DNA from: Nitrospirae bacterium GWC2_57_13
Lineage (GTDB): Bacteria; Nitrospirota; UBA9217
Assembly: GCA_001805055.1 (NCBI GenBank)
Contig: MHDZ01000066.1
Coordinates: forward strand, 4,904-63,619
Direction: 5' to 3'
Length of the DNA stretch: 58,716 bases
A program made the translations under genes and the position numbers. Below, piece after piece: positions 24,447-55,920 of this stretch. Each line of letters opens with the position of its first letter. Positions within the stretch are counted from its first letter, which is position 1. A model generated the notes under the pieces. It searched no databases and was not told where the DNA came from. It saw nothing but the letters and a program-made list of their open reading frames with translations.

Positions 24447-24841
24447 ACTTTACCACGCTGCCAGCCAGGCACAGGAGCCTGTTGTTCGAGATTCCCTCTC
24501 ATGCGCCGCCATCTGCAGCAACTCGGCGCCCGCATGCTTCAGCATGTTCTCTCTACCGACGGCCATTAATGCTGTGTGCGGCTTGATTGTGAAAACCGGA
24601 TTAGTGTTCCGAAACTGCGAGGCCACAGGGCAGTGTGACCTCGTGAATGGCCAATAGTCTTTCGCTGCCGCTTCCTCTGTTTATTATACCAGCCTTTTCC
24701 GGTGAATTCCAGCTGACAGAACAATTCACTGTCCTCGGAAAGCATTCAACGTACTCTTGATGACTTTGCAGCAGGTGCATTATATCGCAATGGGCAGGCG
24801 GTCGGACCTTGATCGGCCTTGCAACGTGGTATAATAACCTT

Positions 24842-25972
24842 ATGCGTTACTTTCTTGCACGGGATGCGGCGCTCAAATGGCTCGAGACGCCGGCGGTCTA
24901 TCACATCCAGAACGATGAACTGTACGAACTCGACGAGGCCTCTTTTGCTTTTTTCGAGTCCTGCACTTCTGAGAAAGGGTGCGCCTCCCGGGACAGCGCC
25001 TTCCTTGACTACTCGCTTGAGGAAGGTCTGATCTCGACGGAACGGTCACCGGTTCCGCAACCGAAGCTCAAGAAAGCGCCTGCCCCCTCCCTTCGCTATC
25101 TAGAACTGCAGATCACCGACGCCTGCAACCTTCGGTGCAAACACTGCTACATCGAAGACAGCCACAATGCGGAACTGCCTCTGGACCGGATCCGCTTGGT
25201 CCTGAAAGAATTCGAGGACATGCAGGGACTGCGTCTGTTGATCACGGGGGGAGAACCGCTTCTGCACAGTGCCTTCAACGATGTGAATGCCATGCTTCCC
25301 GAATTCAGCTTTCGAAAGATCCTGTTCACGAACGGACTTGCGCTGCCTGCCCAGGACCTCGGCGGCCTGAACGTCCATGAAATCCAGCTCAGCATAGACG
25401 GGCTGGAAAAGGCCCATGATGCCCTGCGCGGACAGGGCACCTTCACGCGCACCATCGACGCGGCCACGCGGGCCCTCGATGCCGGTTTCGATGTCTCCAT
25501 CTCAACGATGGTCCATCCCGAAAACTTCGAAGACTTCGACGGCATGGAACGCCTGTTCCGGAGCATGAAGATCAAGGACTGGACCGTAGACGTGCCCTGC
25601 CTAACCGGCAGGCTGAAGGATAACGCCGATTTCCAGGTGCTGCCTGAAGAAGGAGGGAAATATCTGGGCTACGGATTCGGCGGCGGCCTCCACAGCTCGG
25701 GCGCGGGGTTCGGATGCGGCCTCCATCTCATGTCCGTGCTGGCCGACGGCCGGGCGGCGAAGTGCACGTTCTACGCGGACCGGGCCGTCGGGTCCGTCGA
25801 TGAAGGTCTTCGGACCTGCTGGCAGCGGGTACGGCCCGTCCCGCTCGCCTCGCTCACCTGTGACTGCTCCTATCTCGAAGCCTGCAGGGGGGGCTGCCGG
25901 TTCCGCGCGGAACTGCTCTCGGGTAAGAACGGAAAAGACCTTTACAGATGTGCCCTCTATGGTATAGAATAG
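24842..25972 (+). CDS. radical SAM/SPASM protein, probable peptide maturase
   Basis: CNLRCKHC, TGGEP, SPASM Cys (CGLH..KC..CDC..CRGGC..C); about 80-aa N-terminal extension resembling a RiPP recognition element. Confidence 0.85.
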   Translation: MRYFLARDAALKWLETPAVYHIQNDELYELDEASFAFFESCTSEKGCASRDSAFLDYSLEEGLISTERSPVPQPKLKKAPAPSLRYLELQITDACNLRCKHCYIEDSHNAELPLDRIRLVLKEFEDMQGLRLLITGGEPLLHSAFNDVNAMLPEFSFRKILFTNGLALPAQDLGGLNVHEIQLSIDGLEKAHDALRGQGTFTRTIDAATRALDAGFDVSISTMVHPENFEDFDGMERLFRSMKIKDWTVDVPCLTGRLKDNADFQVLPEEGGKYLGYGFGGGLHSSGAGFGCGLHLMSVLADGRAAKCTFYADRAVGSVDEGLRTCWQRVRPVPLASLTCDCSYLEACRGGCRFRAELLSGKNGKDLYRCALYGIE

Positions 25973-26223: not shown

Positions 26224-27270
26224 ATGAAACTCGCCTTGAAGAACTTGATGACCTGCAGCGCCGTTATTCTTCTGCTGCTGACGGCCTGCGCTCCGAAACA
26301 GGCGCCCGTGGGCGGACATCCCGCAGAAACGATCTCCGATTCGGCCCTGCGACCCGACGCGCCGGAGCGCCCGGCTCAGGAAGGAACGCGGACGAGATCT
26401 CAGGGCGAGGAAAAGGCGCCCGGGAGCGAAGCTGTTGAATCGACAGCGCCCGATGTCCCTCCCGATGCCGGGAACGCCAGGTCCTTTTTTGAGCGCGGCA
26501 TCACCTCGTCGAAAAAGGAGCGCTATGATGACGCGATTGCCGAGTATGCGCGCGCCATCGAGCTGAACCCGTCCTATGCTGCAGCGTATAACGAGCGGGG
26601 CTTCGCTTACGCGCAGAAGGCCCAGTACGACAGGGCCATCACGGACTATGCAAAAGCGATCAATCTGAATCCGCGGTATGACGCCGCCTACTACAATCTC
26701 GGCAATGCCTACTATCACAAGGGCCGCTATGAGCCGGCGATCGCCAATTACGACAAGGCGCTCGAATACAATCCCCGCCACTTCATGGCCTTCAACAACC
26801 GCGGCAACTCCTGGTACCAGAAGGCGGAGTTCGGCAGGGCCATTGCCGACTATGTCCGGGCGCTTGAGCACCGGCCGAAGTACGATGAGGCCTATTACAA
26901 CATGGGCAACGCCTATTACCGGAAGGGTGAGTACGAACGGGCCGTGGACAACTACACAAAGGCGATCGAGCTGAACCCGGCGTCGAACCGGTCCTATACG
27001 AACCGGGGCGTCGCCTTCATCATGCGGGGAAAATACGACGACGCCGAGCAGGACATCAGGAAGGCCCTGTCCCTGGACCGTGAGGACAGCGAAGCCATGG
27101 TGCGCATGGCAGAGCTGCACGCGGCGAAAAAGGATGTGGCCGAGGCCTGCCGGTGGCTCCGGCGCGCCGTGGAAAAGGGATACCGCGACAGGAACTATCT
27201 TGCGGCGTCAAAGACCCTGGACCCCATACGCGCTTTTCCCTGCTTCGAGGAGGCCCTTGCGGGCAGATAG
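26224..27270 (+). CDS. TPR-repeat lipoprotein
   Basis: Lipobox LTAC; about six 34-aa TPR units (AYNERG/AYYNLG/AFNNRG). Confidence 0.9.
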   Translation: MKLALKNLMTCSAVILLLLTACAPKQAPVGGHPAETISDSALRPDAPERPAQEGTRTRSQGEEKAPGSEAVESTAPDVPPDAGNARSFFERGITSSKKERYDDAIAEYARAIELNPSYAAAYNERGFAYAQKAQYDRAITDYAKAINLNPRYDAAYYNLGNAYYHKGRYEPAIANYDKALEYNPRHFMAFNNRGNSWYQKAEFGRAIADYVRALEHRPKYDEAYYNMGNAYYRKGEYERAVDNYTKAIELNPASNRSYTNRGVAFIMRGKYDDAEQDIRKALSLDREDSEAMVRMAELHAAKKDVAEACRWLRRAVEKGYRDRNYLAASKTLDPIRAFPCFEEALAGR

Positions 27271-51469: not shown

Positions 51470-51815
51470 AGAAACCTCACCGGGGGAACCAAGTTCCTGT
51501 GATTACCTTCGACATGGTCGACTCGCTCCAAATAACCCTTCGCGTCCTGCTTCGTCCCGCCTCTACTGTTATCGGATGCCGTCCCGGATCAAATACCAAT
51601 AGCATGCGGGCCGGGGTTGCGGGGCGTGCCCTGGCGAATGACAGGCACAGTCTACTGACACCAAAGGGGACTGTCCCTTTTCACTGGCTTGAGGCTAAGC
51701 CGTGCTAATAATGCGGGAAAACGTTGGCTCTAAGAAAAAGCGCTTACATGGTTACCATAGATCGATCAAGCTCCCCGTGAAATACAGCTCACCCTTCCGG
51801 TGAATCCTCGAAAGC

Positions 51816-52937
51816 TCACTGATGTACTTTTATTCTGCTCTCATCCGCCTTCATCCGATCTTTCTGCGTCCCATTTGCTTTTTTTGGATCATCAATGTCA
51901 ATAAAACACTGCGGATCTTCCGCAAGCATGTCCGGTTTTCCCCATGCCTGCGATGCTGCATAAGCGATAGCCCGGCACCCGCGGCAATCGGACCAGCGCT
52001 CGCAGCGGCCGCATTTTCCTCCATATCGTGACCGGTCCCGCAGCGCTTCGAGCACCGGCGATGCGGACCAGACCTCGCGCAGCGAATCGGACCGTACATT
52101 GCCGAGGGGCAGCGGCATCCTGCGGCAGGGAACAAGGGTGCCGTCGGAGAGGATCGTGATGCCTGACACGCCTGCTGCGCATCCGCCGCAGGGTACTACT
52201 CGATCGAGCCGCACGGGTGCCGTGGCCCGCATCTGCGCTCCAACAGGATCACCGCTCACGAACTCAAGACCGTTGGAGGGAAATTCGTTCACCCGCTCAT
52301 AGAGACGCTGAACCTCATCTGTTCCCAGCATCTGCCCCACCAGGCCGGCGCCGCGGCCCGACGGAACGAGCCGAGAATAGCCGAGGCGGGGCACACCCAG
52401 GGCTGACATCTGGCGGGCCAGCTCGAAAAAGACGTCGGCGTTCATTCGCGAGAGCGTCGTGTTGACCGTCACCGGCATCTTCGCGTCGAGCAGGGCGGCT
52501 ATACCGTTGAGGGATGCATGGAAGCTGCGCGTGCCCCTGATGCGGTCATGGACCTCCTCGGGACCTTCCAGGCTCACCTGCACGCCTCGCACACCTGCGG
52601 CGACGAACTGCCTTGCCTTATCCTGATCGATGAGAATGCCGTTCGTAAGAAGATAGACCGCATGGCCCTTGCCTGCGATCTCTTCCAGAATGGTCATCAG
52701 GTCGCGCCGGAGAAGAGGCTCACCGCCGGTAATGTTGAACTCCGGCATTGCGGCGATGCCATAGGCGTCCTGCCAGGCCCGGCACATCGAGAAGATCTCG
52801 GACAGCGTATCCCGTATTTCCGGCAGCGTGAGTTCGCTTCCTGCGCTGCCGGACTGGTAGCAGTGCGAGCAGTGCAGGTTGCATTGCTCGGTAATGTGCC
52901 ACTGCACAAGAAAATCGATATCACCGGCTATTGGCAT
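51816..52937 (-). CDS. radical SAM/SPASM protein, probable peptide maturase
   Basis: VQWHITEQCNLHCSHCYQ, TGGEP, SPASM CGGC..PC..CGRC..CRGCRA..DPQC. Confidence 0.88.
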   Translation of the reverse strand: MPIAGDIDFLVQWHITEQCNLHCSHCYQSGSAGSELTLPEIRDTLSEIFSMCRAWQDAYGIAAMPEFNITGGEPLLRRDLMTILEEIAGKGHAVYLLTNGILIDQDKARQFVAAGVRGVQVSLEGPEEVHDRIRGTRSFHASLNGIAALLDAKMPVTVNTTLSRMNADVFFELARQMSALGVPRLGYSRLVPSGRGAGLVGQMLGTDEVQRLYERVNEFPSNGLEFVSGDPVGAQMRATAPVRLDRVVPCGGCAAGVSGITILSDGTLVPCRRMPLPLGNVRSDSLREVWSASPVLEALRDRSRYGGKCGRCERWSDCRGCRAIAYAASQAWGKPDMLAEDPQCFIDIDDPKKANGTQKDRMKADESRIKVHQ

Positions 52938-52963
52938 CGGAAAGGACCTCCGCGAAGCGCTCG

Positions 52964-53000
52964 AGGGACAGTCCCCCTGGAACCTAAGGGGACTGTCCCT
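52964..53000. repeat. REP-like palindrome (copy of 24074-24110)
   Basis: agggacagtccccctggaacctaaggggactgtccct. Confidence 0.7.
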
Positions 53001-53226
53001 GTCTGAAGCAAAGGCGCCTCTCGCAAAGCCGCAAAGGACGCCAAGAAAAGATCCAAAATTCTTAAATCATGCATTACGGTTTTCTTCGCGCTCATTGCGC
53101 CTTGGCGGTAAATGGTGTTTACGTTCGATTGCAGAGAATACTTAACTCGACATACAGGACAGTGCTCAGCAAAAAACCGACAAACCTAATAAGATCTATT
53201 GGACGCGGATCAAATCTGATAACGCT

Positions 53227-53277
53227 AAAAGAAGATTGGCTGACGCAGCCGGGTCCTACCCGCAGGCTGCGCCAGCC
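53227..53277 (-). terminator. terminator/stabilising hairpin downstream of precursor peptide
   Basis: GGCTGGCGCAGCC...GGCTGCGTCAGCC 13-bp stem (one G-U) followed by AATCTTCTTTT. Confidence 0.55.
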
Positions 53278-53290
53278 GGACCTCATACTC

Positions 53291-53306
53291 GTTGCCGACC
53301 GGCAAC
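53291..53306 (-). promoter_or_regulatory. putative bacterial SECIS element
   Basis: GTTGCC-GGTC-GGCAAC hairpin; loop begins 25 and 16 nt after the first and second TGA. Confidence 0.6.
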
Positions 53307-53307
53307 T

Positions 53308-53430
53308 TCAGCTCTTTCAGCCCTTTCACTTGCGGCATGCCGTTCCGGGATGCTGCTGCATTGCCTGCTTCATCTTCTCCCAGAAGGCAGCCTCCTTCTT
53401 GAGTGTTCCTTCACTGAGAGGCTTCTTCAT
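53308..53430 (-). CDS. putative selenocysteine-containing RiPP precursor, 40 aa (MKKPLSEGTLKKEAAFWEKMKQAMQQHPGTACRK-U-KG-U-KS)
   Basis: AAAGGAGGTG RBS; in-frame TGA at 53326, 53317 and 53308, continuing the 3-residue spacing set by Cys32; SECIS-like hairpin; upstream of rSAM/SPASM gene on the same strand. Confidence 0.7.
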
Positions 53431-53697
53431 CCCTGGCTCACCTCCTTTCCCGCTGGACTCATTCTTCCATAGTATCAAAGAAACGGCCCTGTCGCTTGCC
53501 GCACACATACCTAAGTATTACGGGCTTTCGCATTGAATCATGAGCCGTGGCTTTTCGGGCTAAATGGTGCGAAGTTCATAACCTCTGCGATCTACAGTAA
53601 TTTTTTTTGGTTCAATCTTGATTTTGACGCCCCATGATGCTATTCTAGTCATCATTTTTCCTGCGCAGGACCATTCCTCGACATACTAGAGAAGGAG

Positions 53698-54993
53698 ATG
53701 CAAAACATGATAGCAAGGCGTGCCCTCTTCATCGCTGCGATCCTCATGATGCTGTTCGTCCGTCCGGCGTCTGCCCAGGTGGACTGTTCGCAGTGCCATC
53801 CCGACCTGGCCCAGGGCAAGTCTGTTCACGCAGCGGTCGCGATGGGCTGCGATTCCTGCCACTCGGCCATCGACGCCTCGAACATTCCCCATAAGAAGAC
53901 GAACAAGATACCCCGCGGGCTTTCGTCGGCCCAGCCGGCACTGTGCTACGGCTGCCATGACAAGTCAAAATTTACCCAAAAGACGGTCCATGCCGCCCTC
54001 GGCATGGGGTGCACGAGCTGCCACAGTCCTCACTCATCTAAGAGCGATAAACTGCTTATCGCAGATCCGGGAGAACTGTGCTACAACTGCCACGACAAAG
54101 CGAAGTTCACGAAAAAGACCGTGCATGCCGCCCTCGGCATGGGATGCACCACCTGCCACAACCCGCACTCGACCAAGAGCGCCAAGCTGCTTGCCTCGGA
54201 CCAGCCGGGCCTCTGCTATACCTGCCACGACAAGGCGAAGTTTACCCAGAAGGTCGTTCACGCGGCCCTGGGCATGGGATGCACGGGATGCCACAGCCCC
54301 CATTCCACCAGGAACGCGAAGCTGCTCGCAGCAGACCAGCCTGCTGTATGCTTGACCTGCCACGACAAAAAGAAGTTCAGCGACAAGGTCGTTCATGCGG
54401 CGGTGGGCATGGGATGCACAGGATGCCACGGCCCCCACTCGTCAAAGAACGCAAAGCTCCTTCTGTCGGACCAGCCTGACCTGTGCTACACCTGCCACGA
54501 CAAGTCAATCTTTACGAAAAAGAACGTACACGCCGCTGTTGCCATGGGATGCACGAGCTGCCACAGCCCCCATGCGGCCAGGAACGCAAAGCTGCTCCAA
54601 TCCGACCCTCCGGCGCTCTGCTTCAACTGCCACGACAAGACGGAGTTCTCGAAAAAGAACGTGCACGCCGCCGTAGGCATGGGGTGCGCGGTATGTCATA
54701 CTCCCCACTCCTCAGATGAAATGGCGCTGCTTGCAAAGCCCCCCGTTGAGACCTGCCTTGAATGCCATCCCAACGTGGCGAATGCTCCCCACGTGGTCGC
54801 CGGCTTCTCTGCCAAACGGCATCCCGTCGGGGAACCGCAAAAGAGCGGCAGATACCGGAAGGACCCTGCGCGGCCCGACAAGCCCTTCTATTGCGGAAGC
54901 TGCCACAGCCCGCACAGTTCGGACAGCATGCGACTATTCCGTTATCCTGTAAAAACAGCGATGGAAATATGCTCGAAGTGCCACAAGATGTGA
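53698..54993 (+). CDS. 17-heme periplasmic cytochrome c built from doubled-CxxCH repeats
   Basis: Signal peptide; 17 CxxCH counted; CHxPH motifs; AAGGAG RBS. Confidence 0.92.
   Translation: MQNMIARRALFIAAILMMLFVRPASAQVDCSQCHPDLAQGKSVHAAVAMGCDSCHSAIDASNIPHKKTNKIPRGLSSAQPALCYGCHDKSKFTQKTVHAALGMGCTSCHSPHSSKSDKLLIADPGELCYNCHDKAKFTKKTVHAALGMGCTTCHNPHSTKSAKLLASDQPGLCYTCHDKAKFTQKVVHAALGMGCTGCHSPHSTRNAKLLAADQPAVCLTCHDKKKFSDKVVHAAVGMGCTGCHGPHSSKNAKLLLSDQPDLCYTCHDKSIFTKKNVHAAVAMGCTSCHSPHAARNAKLLQSDPPALCFNCHDKTEFSKKNVHAAVGMGCAVCHTPHSSDEMALLAKPPVETCLECHPNVANAPHVVAGFSAKRHPVGEPQKSGRYRKDPARPDKPFYCGSCHSPHSSDSMRLFRYPVKTAMEICSKCHKM
53941..54750 (+). repeat. six intragenic 135-bp (45-aa) diheme tandem repeats
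   Basis: Units begin at 53941, 54076, 54211, 54346, 54481 and 54616 (LCYxCHDK..F....VHAAxGMGCxxCHxPH....KLL). Confidence 0.9.
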
Positions 54994-55290: not shown

Positions 55291-55584
55291 GTGATAAAAT
55301 CGTTCCGCGACAAGGGCACCGAGGATCTTTTTGACAGGAAAAACACCCGAGAAGCCAGACAGGCTTGTCCGCAGCAAATCTGGCGAATAGCACAGCGAAA
55401 GCTCGATCAACTTAATGGGGTCGTTTCCTTGGAATCTTTGAAAATTCCACCGGGAAATTTACTGGAAGCCCTTAAACATGATCGGAAGGGTCAGCACAGC
55501 ATACGGATTAACGATCAGTTCCGCGTTTGTTTTGTGTGGACGGATGATGGCGTGGAAAACGTCGAAATTACCGATTACCACTGA
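55291..55584 (+). CDS. higB: HigB (RelE/ParE-family) toxin
   Basis: MIKSFRDKGTE...RKLDQL...PPGNLLEALK..RKGQHSIRINDQFRVCFVW...VEITDYH. Confidence 0.93.
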   Translation: MIKSFRDKGTEDLFDRKNTREARQACPQQIWRIAQRKLDQLNGVVSLESLKIPPGNLLEALKHDRKGQHSIRINDQFRVCFVWTDDGVENVEITDYH

Positions 55585-55587
55585 AGA

Positions 55588-55920
55588 GTGAAGGAGAAGA
55601 AGATGGTACGCATACCTAAATATGGTCCGCCGACGCATCCCGGTGAGATGCTGCTGGAGGAGTTTCTCAAACCTCTGAAAATAACGCAGAGTAGTTTGGC
55701 GGAAAAGCTGGGAGTTTCATATCCTCGCGTTAATGAACTGATTCATGGGAAGCGGGGGATAACCCCTGACACAGCACTTCGTCTGGAGAAACTGTTTGGC
55801 ATGGAGGCGCAGTTTTGGCTTAATTTGCAGTTGGCGTGGGACTTATATCATGTAACCCATTCAGCAACTGCGAAGGAGATAAAGAAAATTAAAAGATTGC
55901 CTGCCTTAGCTCACGTCTAA
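55588..55920 (+). CDS. higA: HigA antitoxin (XRE HTH)
   Basis: PTHPGEMLLEEFL, ITPDTALRL, FWLNLQ; downstream of toxin. Start could be ATG 55603. Confidence 0.93.
   Translation: MKEKKMVRIPKYGPPTHPGEMLLEEFLKPLKITQSSLAEKLGVSYPRVNELIHGKRGITPDTALRLEKLFGMEAQFWLNLQLAWDLYHVTHSATAKEIKKIKRLPALAHV

Follow-up and report, generated by a model that had tools for sequence, protein, structure and literature searches.

A candidate selenocysteine-containing precursor peptide and its radical SAM/SPASM partner in Nitrospirota

Introduction

Can a short bacterial gene with three in-frame TGA codons encode a peptide that carries two selenocysteine (Sec) residues, and is such a peptide the substrate of the enzyme encoded behind it? 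The question is raised by a 58,716-nt stretch of DNA from Nitrospirae bacterium GWC2_57_13 (contig MHDZ01000066.1, positions 4,904 to 63,619; the whole stretch is called the window below), in which a small open reading frame (ORF) reading C-R-K-TGA-K-G-TGA-K-S-TGA at its end precedes a gene for a radical S-adenosylmethionine (SAM) enzyme with a SPASM domain. A sequence-only reading had proposed that the first two TGAs encode Sec, that a hairpin behind the gene acts as the Sec insertion sequence (SECIS), and that the enzyme may modify the peptide. From the analysis reported here, we put at roughly 0.7 the probability that the two genes form a cassette in which a Sec-containing precursor, similar to those of peptides that are made on ribosomes and modified after translation (RiPPs), is paired with a dedicated radical SAM/SPASM maturase.

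All features of the cassette lie on the minus strand of the window. A Shine-Dalgarno-like sequence, AAAGGAGGTG (53439..53448), can be read directly 8 nt before the start codon, the ATG at 53430, from which an ORF of 40 codons with two UGAs as Sec (53311..53430, defined by sequence and profile) runs as MKKPLSEGTLKKEAAFWEKMKQAMQQHPGTACRK-TGA-KG-TGA-KS-TGA; with UGA translated as Sec (U), the peptide is MKKPLSEGTLKKEAAFWEKMKQAMQQHPGTACRKUKGUKS. Residues 1-31 form the leader and residues 32-40 the core, C-x-K-U-K-G-U-K-S, in which the Cys codon can be read at 53337..53335, UGA1 (proposed Sec35) lies at 53326..53328 and UGA2 (proposed Sec38) at 53317..53319. One base behind the third TGA (53308..53310), in the 3' untranslated region, stands the SECIS-like hairpin GUUGCC-GGUC-GGCAAC (53291..53306), followed by a second, terminator- or attenuator-like hairpin (53227..53277) with a 13-bp stem that pairs 53277..53265 with 53250..53238 around an inner stem-loop, and with a U-rich tail that reaches 53227. 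Another ~290 nt downstream, past a palindromic repeat, begins the enzyme ORF (51816..52937, 373 aa), with a GGAGG (52947..52951) that is read directly 9 nt before its ATG. The ribosome-binding site, start codon and frame given by the sequence-only reading were confirmed base for base; both of its hairpins are present (53306..53291 and 53277..53227), its radical SAM/SPASM gene is the same-strand ORF at 52937..51816, to which both Pfam domains match, and the three TGAs do stand 25, 16 and 7 nt from the first loop, as that reading states. The stop codon of the enzyme gene is itself a TGA, which makes TGA an ordinary stop in this genome, and genome-wide reassignment of UGA was rejected for that reason.

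Conservation of the two in-frame UGA codons

Relatives were sought in 401 genomes of one phylum and in 80 metagenome loci, the latter being contigs fetched with an alignment of the enzyme. Of 36 genomes from the same family, 23 have enzyme orthologues with 50-84% identity, and the motif C-[HR]-K-TGA-K-x-TGA-K-x-stop lies upstream in 23 of 25 such orthologue loci. Because TGA was built into this pattern, the test was repeated without that requirement: with a pattern allowing Cys or Sec, the peptide was found in 14 of 16 further enzyme-anchored upstream regions, always with TGA, and in 62 of the 80 metagenome loci, all of which have Sec codons. A profile (A1) built from 61 peptides and used in a six-frame search with stops read through, again with no requirement for TGA, matches the peptide in 73 of the 401 genomes. 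Every full-length match, 73 in all, has two TGAs in frame, no more and no fewer, and not one lacks an internal stop; the profile also matched a 22-residue fragment, a partial copy and, weakly (E 1.4e-4), one more sequence. When the DNA motif was scanned for, it was present in 56 of the 401 genomes, and the reversed-pattern control in none (0/401). Peptide core, hairpin and enzyme recur in 61 distinct genome loci and in the 62 metagenome loci. The sequence-only reading had named homologous loci that lack the peptide, or that use TAA or TAG at the first TGA, as evidence that would speak against it; the 73 full-length matches, each with its two TGAs, show the opposite.

The third stop codon behaves differently. 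Across the 61 loci it is TAA in 32, TGA in 24 and TAG in 5, and it is directly behind this codon, and not before it, that frame-breaking spacers of 0-7 nt begin, so that no frame is kept past this point. The prediction that the third TGA is the stop, giving a 40-residue product, is borne out in that only this codon interchanges with TAA and TAG in relatives. Up to the third stop, the sequence varies as a coding sequence does: in the sense codons that follow UGA1, codon positions 1, 2 and 3 have summed entropies of 1.21, 0.87 and 3.24, the third-position variation continues past both UGAs, and AGY as well as TCN codons are used for Ser behind UGA1 and again behind UGA2. These patterns argue for selection on a protein and not on an RNA motif. 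The residues between the two UGAs vary (KG, KS, SS, NS, KE, KK, KA, KT) and the UGAs themselves are constant, and within the leader E13 and W17 are invariant in the 61 sequences, most of which share only 41-65% identity.

In a set of 1.84 billion representative proteins, the profile finds 114 relatives, of which 107 end exactly at C-x-K/S, the position of UGA1, just as had been expected of gene callers meeting this frame at CRK. One further relative, called with TGA as Trp, continues across the three TGAs; three of the 114 matches are unrelated repeat proteins and three are aberrant. A search of NCBIfam (June 2026) with the 61 peptides returned only weak, chance-level matches (best SkfF, 0.0033, 6 members). 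Since gene callers cut the peptide at 34 residues, the family is invisible to standard annotation and to RiPP mining.

Two loci stand apart from the general arrangement. In L012, from a named Thermodesulfovibrionales metagenome-assembled genome (MAG), the K-S-stop tail is missing and only 2 nt separate the second TGA from the hairpin, which is thus ~19 nt away from the first, behind an acidic leader that has no clear start; this could be a single-Sec form with UGA2 as its stop, or a decaying copy. In L056 (genome G287), a peptide gene without the enzyme adjoins a convergent selD-like gene and lies near Fur-like and ZnuA-like ORFs, identities that were read from the translations and carry no scores.

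A SECIS-like hairpin positioned relative to the UGA codons

In 59 of the 61 loci, the stop is followed within 20 nt by a perfect 6-bp hairpin; of 2901 places taken at random in these loci, 505 (17%) have such a hairpin. Its closing pair is C-G in 38 and U-A in 21 of the 61, a compensatory change, and its second pair is U-A in 51 and C-G in 5, with only isolated mismatches. The loop begins GGU in 58 of 61 loci (most often GGUC, 28, followed by GGUCA, 14, GGUCC, 7, and GGUUC, 5) and starts 18-20 nt from the U of UGA2 and 27-29 nt from that of UGA1, likewise in 58 of 61. Some metagenome relatives have a tail of three residues behind UGA2 where the others have two. In them the GGU stands 20-21 nt from UGA2, the mode moving only from 19 for the two-residue tail to 20 for the longer one, and the distance from the stop to the loop drops from 10 to 8 as the tail grows. 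The loop distance is therefore kept to UGA2 and not to the stop, which places the hairpin relative to the UGAs and not to the gene end.

The organism's own selenoprotein genes provide a direct comparison. Three fdhA genes above the family cut-off are present in this genome, each with one in-frame UGA, and their hairpins (GUGGCC-GGUCU-GGCCAC, GUGGCC-GGUCU-GGCCGC and GUGGCC-AGUCU-GGCCAC) have the loop 21 nt from the U of the UGA; the apex of the peptide hairpin, GCC-GGUC-GGC, matches that of these SECIS elements. A genome-wide scan for the same type of apex returned 16 hairpins, and the four of these that belong to the three fdhA genes and the peptide stand 19-28 nt after an in-frame UGA. A stem-loop 3' of the UGA with a G/U apical loop and constrained spacing is what is expected of a bacterial selenoprotein gene, for which the accepted spacing is ~16-37 nt. 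By these sequence features the hairpin at 53291..53306 behaves as a SECIS, and we assume that it would also allow efficient decoding of UGA1.

The second hairpin of the window is far more stable than expected by chance (-32.8 kcal/mol, z -4.51, with 0 of 200 shuffles folding as well), and most related loci have a long hairpin in the corresponding position. A consensus terminator scan gave one site at this hairpin, no more than in shuffled sequences (mean 1.0). Across several families of the phylum (L028, L032, L037, L038, L055, L058, L066, L068-L070 and others), the arms GGCAGAUAUG ... CAUAUCUGCC recur and the inner part varies; judged from the sequences, this is conservation beyond what a plain terminator would need. 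The window's own second hairpin has different arms.

One further hairpin of the GCC-GGUC-GGC type was seen outside the window, near 8356 of contig C52 in G000, 29 nt after an in-frame TGA. The open frame there holds a CxxCH heme motif (...TCGKAACHPEEV...HGPNNU GPSF...) and may encode a multiheme cytochrome selenoprotein.

Selenocysteine machinery

All four genes for Sec synthesis and insertion whose presence had been proposed as a check are found in the genome: selB (367 bits), selA (599 bits), selD, which has its own in-frame TGA, and the gene for tRNA-Sec (selC), which adjoins selB. Among the 72 genomes that confidently carry the peptide, selB (counted at E <= 1e-60) is present in 66 and one more has selA. 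Four others, 86-96% complete, have neither selA nor selB in their bins and do have fdhA with an in-frame TGA; the remaining one, at 63% completeness, cannot be judged. In the 401-genome sample, the families of the phylum without selB gave no confident match to the peptide.

The radical SAM/SPASM enzyme

The enzyme matches the Pfam families Radical_SAM (1.5e-21) and SPASM (1.7e-10). In 42 orthologues, the CxxxCxxC motif (C19, C23, C26) and all seven SPASM cysteines (C253, C271, C309, C312, C318, C321, C344) are invariant, a combination of motifs that is looked for in RiPP maturases. The enzyme falls under every NCBIfam cut-off. Its best model is AhbD (TIGR04545; 172.8 bits, cut-off 500), which matches in two pieces, followed by TIGR04053 (151.9/395), ACGX (TIGR04340; 149.2/400), NirJ2 (147/500), GeoRSP (TIGR04303; 138.3/400), SbtM (TIGR04082; 131.8/350), NirJ (118.4/515) and AhbC (118/650). 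Identification as AhbD or NirJ was rejected on these scores and on the finding of a genuine AhbD (527.6 bits) on another contig, C56; a grouping with AhbC, AhbD or NirJ, which the sequence-only reading had said would count against it, was thus not found. The enzyme was also rejected as an SbtM, ACGX or GeoRSP protein, its scores being below the curated cut-offs. What is left of the earlier likeness to selenobiotic and ACGX-system maturases is a sub-threshold family resemblance.

The AlphaFold model of the enzyme has a mean predicted local distance difference test score (pLDDT) of 83.1 and a predicted template modelling score (pTM) of 0.83. Among solved structures, those closest to it in fold are SkfB, SuiB and anSME, followed by ChlB and PqqE, with 16-24% identity, and the best matches by sequence in the Protein Data Bank (PDB) are SkfB (1.3e-17) and PqqE (7e-10). 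In the Protein Atlas, the nearest cluster is a generic radical SAM/SPASM group, mostly from Thermodesulfobacteriota, which we treat as a lead only.

Pairing of peptide and enzyme

With an enzyme threshold of E <= 1e-90, the enzyme is present in 73 of the 401 genomes: both genes occur in 71, the enzyme alone in 2, the peptide alone in 2 and neither in 326. These genomes are related to each other, so the co-occurrence is not a statistical test. The two genes share the same patchy distribution over eleven families, the peptide gene adjoins the enzyme gene in most loci, and 7 genomes keep the two on different contigs. The peptide-only cases are one 88% complete bin and a doubtful weak profile hit. 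One of the features by which RiPP systems are recognized, genetic linkage between an enzyme and a small ORF whose product combines a conserved leader with a core rich in Cys/Sec, is thus present here.

The leader varies together with the enzyme. Loci whose enzymes share 39-46% identity encode peptides with quite different leaders, for instance ...RRQEAKFWAMMRAAEPGKRC... or ...REARFFQRLKEAVAKSKALARNC..., and these nevertheless keep the core C-x-x-U-K-x-U-K-x-x, always with TGA. A fixed core behind a variable leader whose type matches the enzyme subfamily is the pattern of a precursor and its maturase.

We also modelled the 34-residue leader, as translated with code 11, together with the enzyme, each supplied as an alignment. 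The interface score ipSAE was 0.79 in 3 of 3 runs, and the best of three controls reached 0.02; in calibration, 58 of 80 solved complexes reached this mark, as did 2 of 110 mismatched pairs, counts that hold only approximately here, where we supplied alignments of our own. The runs agree in at least 82% of contacts, with a partner pLDDT of at least 71. The best-defined contacts join E13, A14 and W17 of the leader to W55, Y59, R287 and W290-S292 of the enzyme. E13 and W17 in the leader and W55, R287, W290 and R300 in the enzyme are invariant in the alignments, and in the model the invariant leader residues contact the invariant enzyme residues. As a prediction, the model supports binding of the peptide leader by the enzyme and does not demonstrate it. 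To our knowledge, no complex has been solved with a leader at this site on an enzyme that lacks a RiPP recognition element (RRE).

The core region of the peptide gene shows a further regularity. In 55 of 61 loci an A stands immediately before the Cys codon, whether the preceding residue is Val, Thr, Ala, Ile, Leu or Ser, and this A (53338 in the window) creates an ATG in another frame. Four compact genome loci and the majority of the distant metagenome loci (type B; L094, L097, L100, L101 and L161-L198 in all) have an enzyme frame that is open, in this other frame, through the peptide core. The only in-frame enzyme starts in these loci are RTG triplets that overlap the Cys or UGA codons, and in 8 of 28 distant loci the peptide stop overlaps the enzyme start as ATGA. 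As sequence features, these overlaps suggest translational coupling in such relatives. Coupling of this kind would not account for the window's own locus, where the corresponding frame ends after 37 codons.

Discussion

We infer from the conservation pattern, the hairpin and the machinery that Sec is inserted at UGA1 and UGA2, and from the pairing and the modelled contact that the peptide is the substrate of the enzyme. In the mechanism that we propose, SelB carrying Sec-tRNA would bind the hairpin behind the stop codon, and this single SECIS would serve both UGAs, which lie 9 nt apart, so that both are read as Sec. The third stop, too near the hairpin, would end the 40-residue peptide, giving a basic product with the C-terminal core Cys-x-Lys-Sec-Lys-x-Sec-Lys-x. 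The enzyme, whose full SPASM domain would hold two auxiliary Fe-S clusters, would dock the helical leader through E13 and W17 and then modify the Sec/Cys core. By analogy, the chemistry that we would guess first is the formation of Se-C (selenoether) or related cross-links, which would arise after the chalcogen binds an auxiliary cluster, as in the thioether-forming SPASM maturases; the main alternative, an oxidation of the Sec side chain of the anSME or SbtM kind, is possible too, and the fold and domains would allow either. The invariant Lys after each Sec might be a cross-link partner or might meet a nucleotide-context requirement of recoding. With no conserved peptidase or exporter nearby, an intracellular product is expected, probably a cofactor-like, redox or signalling peptide and not a secreted bacteriocin.

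Several observations weigh against this interpretation. No Cys homologue was found among the 73 genome matches, 62 metagenome loci and 114 database representatives; the peptide and the hairpin were conserved in homologs as had been anticipated, the interchange of Cys and TGA was not seen, and an alignment of Cys opposite UGA, the classical test for a selenoprotein, was not obtained. A separate expectation for a selenoprotein gene, in-frame UGAs that are conserved while the true stop varies, is borne out. The distance from UGA1 to the loop exceeds the offset in fdhA (21 nt) by 6-8 nt, and the stability of the first hairpin, taken alone, is unremarkable (z -1.77, with 10 of 200 shuffles folding as well). 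Two genomes that are 100% and 98% complete (G006 and G145) have the enzyme and no detectable peptide. Of the 25 orthologue loci, L012 has a shortened core and no recognisable leader, and L026 has no peptide within 1 kb. Among the metagenome loci, 18 of 80 lack the peptide, 9 of these having less than 165 nt of upstream DNA; by the first pattern, 9 of the 71 with at least 550 nt of upstream DNA lack it, one of which was recovered with a looser scan. No conserved peptidase, transporter or other third gene lies near the cassette (genes of the nitroreductase, epimerase and YceI-like kinds adjoin it in no more than 12 of the 80 loci), and the Pfam scan of the enzyme found no further domain and no RRE/PqqD. 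Finally, the RNA evidence for the window's own locus is one short contig, 152 nt over 53286..53437, from a single metatranscriptome library (X20), which also holds two contigs of relatives over core and hairpin; such contigs cannot show transcript ends, uncovered stretches are uninformative and DNA carry-over is possible in such a library, so that this gives only a weak hint of transcription of the peptide gene.

Some of these points would be explained if the peptide were a finished small selenoprotein, a basic helix with a metal-, selenium- or redox-active Cys/Sec/Sec tail, and the enzyme its partner and not its maturase; the enzyme might then receive selenium or electrons from the peptide, or might have a different substrate within the same pathway. 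The lack of a nearby peptidase or exporter and of an RRE, the non-adjacent genes in 7 genomes and the selD that adjoins the peptide gene in one locus all suit such a role, and to us the C-x-x-U-x-x-U spacing resembles a cluster- or metal-binding motif, UxxU being found in predicted metal-binding selenoproteins in the accessible part of PMC13188914. We nevertheless consider it unlikely, because the modelled contact is made by the leader helix, as in precursor recognition, and not by the Sec tail, because the leaders diverge with the enzyme subfamily around a fixed core, as in modified peptides, and because the nearest folds are peptide-modifying enzymes. The absence of a function for the peptide itself, with the small ORF serving as a selenium-sensing leader through which the supply of Sec-tRNA, by determining if ribosomes get beyond the two UGAs, sets expression of the radical SAM gene by way of the downstream hairpin or a start-stop overlap, seems more improbable. 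The strong hairpin with its U-rich tail between the genes, the hairpins in most related loci, and the open enzyme frames and ATGA overlaps (8/28) of the relatives would fit such control. It could not act in cis from another contig, where 7 genomes keep the peptide and hairpin away from the enzyme, and it would not account for amino-acid selection on the leader, with E13 and W17 invariant in 61 sequences, or for the modelling of that leader onto invariant enzyme residues. Coupling and a role as substrate are in any case compatible with each other.

Two other possibilities concern the reading of the core itself. Translation might end at UGA1, giving a 34-residue peptide with a Cys-Arg-Lys end, the conserved 40 nt behind it then being a non-coding RNA element. 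The 107 of 114 database relatives annotated in this way merely reflect standard gene calling, and UGA1 does lie further from its hairpin than the UGA of fdhA does. The third-position variation and the switching of Ser between AGY and TCN after UGA1, the variable residues between invariant UGAs, a third stop that acts as a stop with the frame kept only up to it, and a hairpin of the organism's own SECIS type are all at odds with termination there, which we regard as very improbable. We give hardly any credence to the overlapping ORF in another frame (53338..53225, MPQVKGLKELKLPVGNE...) as the real gene, in which the TGAs would be by-products of Leu-Lys-Glu-Leu codons. Its ATG is present in 55 of 61 loci, and several of the variable sites are synonymous in that frame too (CTG/TTG, CCG/CCA). 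Its length ranges from 2 to 92 codons, save in the four compact loci where it runs into the enzyme gene, the sequence after LKEL falls into all three hairpin frames, it has no leader and no evident ribosome-binding site upstream, and the strongly conserved N-terminal 31 residues belong to the peptide frame; it was rejected on its variable length and on its use of all three hairpin frames.

If the cassette does pair a Sec precursor with a maturase, its closest parallel is SbtA/SbtM, the only natural Sec-containing radical SAM peptide system that we found described in the accessible parts of PMC9204691 and PMC13188914. Both systems have a small precursor with UGA-encoded Sec near its C-terminus, a SECIS and a radical SAM/SPASM partner. 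The enzyme here, however, matches only positions 199-503 of the SbtM model and lacks the ~200-residue N-terminal part of SbtM, none of the 61 peptides matches SbtA (TIGR04081), and the SbtA motif is GGUG or SGUG and not C-x-K-U-K-x-U-K-x. According to the text available to us, SbtM comes from Geobacter and Desulfobacteria and oxidises Cys/Sec to a thio(seleno)oxazole (PMC9204691), whereas the present family was found in another phylum, one named relative being a Thermodesulfovibrionales MAG. These comparisons point to a second, uncurated family of Sec-containing, radical SAM-associated peptides that is unrelated in sequence to SbtA/SbtM.

The thioether maturases PapB, Tte1186 (CteB type) and SkfB resemble the enzyme in being SPASM proteins that act on a Cys-rich C-terminal core behind a conserved leader, and SkfB is its best match in the PDB both by sequence and by fold. 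As described in the accessible part of PMC10177961, PapB and Tte1186 accept Sec in place of Cys, the selenium binding an auxiliary cluster and a Se-C bond being formed in vitro. Here, in contrast, Sec appears to be genetically encoded and obligatory, with no Cys form found, and the enzyme has no RRE and only 16-24% identity to the solved enzymes. The two-gene layout without a transporter is one that we take to resemble the SCIFF cassette. Of the oxidising enzymes, anSME is similar in size, likewise lacks an RRE, has a full SPASM domain and oxidises Cys in a peptide substrate (TM-score 0.66-0.67); it shares 18-19% identity with the enzyme, acts on sulfatases with no dedicated precursor gene alongside, and its NCBIfam model is not among the 25 best matches listed for the enzyme.

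The double-Sec arrangement has precedents, as far as the accessible part of PMC13188914 describes them: UxxU pairs occur in three predicted selenoprotein families, and 'UXX-star' proteins have Sec three residues from the end. Like these (NF041114, NF041211), the present peptides have UGAs 9 nt apart and Sec at -3, a position that obliges the SECIS to stand behind the stop codon. None of the 61 peptides matches these models, and that part of the source does not describe the families as partners of radical SAM enzymes. Its 2026 review table, so far as available, has no C-x-x-U-x-x-U peptide, and the literature that we searched has nothing on such a peptide with a radical SAM partner.

Two Sec residues and the lack of Cys-only relatives suggest chemistry that needs selenium. 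A further-reaching version of the cassette reading is conceivable, though we advance it as doubtful: an obligate double-Sec family of modified peptides, widespread among anaerobic, Nitrospirota-type bacteria, with no Cys counterpart, in which an RRE-less SPASM enzyme would install Se-C cross-links that sulfur cannot replace, or some other Se-specific modification, and in which the maturase of compact relatives would be translated from a start that overlaps the stop or UGA codons of the peptide. If so, this would be a new class of natural selenopeptide, and in the compact relatives synthesis of the enzyme would depend on reading of the recoded peptide gene. About one in six of the genomes sampled from the phylum carries the peptide family. 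The locus offers a way to ask if SPASM enzymes make selenoethers in nature, a reaction so far demonstrated only on synthetic substrates, and it illustrates how two UGAs could be served by a single bacterial SECIS that lies behind a stop codon.

Other features of the window

A consensus scan for sigma-70-like promoters found none, and a search of Rfam over 52900..53600 returned nothing relevant, its three matches (E 6.3-8.3) being far under the gathering scores. DNA run X1 contains the whole stretch near-identically and, because this DNA may derive from it, is not independent evidence. Between the peptide and enzyme genes lies a palindromic element, GGGACAGTCCCC ... GGGGACTGTCCC (52964..53004), with a similar copy downstream of the enzyme gene, near 51655..51690. 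In a DNA run that covers the stretch, the depth over the palindrome is ~810, compared with ~7 in its flanks, and many contigs of that run end or join at the element, which looks like a multi-copy repeat of the repetitive extragenic palindromic (REP) type.

Elsewhere in the window, on the plus strand, a second radical SAM protein of 387 aa (24809..25972) is below all NCBIfam cut-offs (best WgkB-type, 84.8 bits compared with 650) and is followed by a TPR protein at 26224..27270. Divergent from the cassette, 53698..54993 (plus strand) encodes a multiheme c-type cytochrome with six doubled-CXXCH domains that passes the DmsE-family decaheme model (205.7 bits, cut-off 192.2). Beyond it, at 55291..55920 on the plus strand, a small ORF is followed by a HigA-family antitoxin (109 bits, cut-off 47.7), and the two are probably a HigB/HigA pair.

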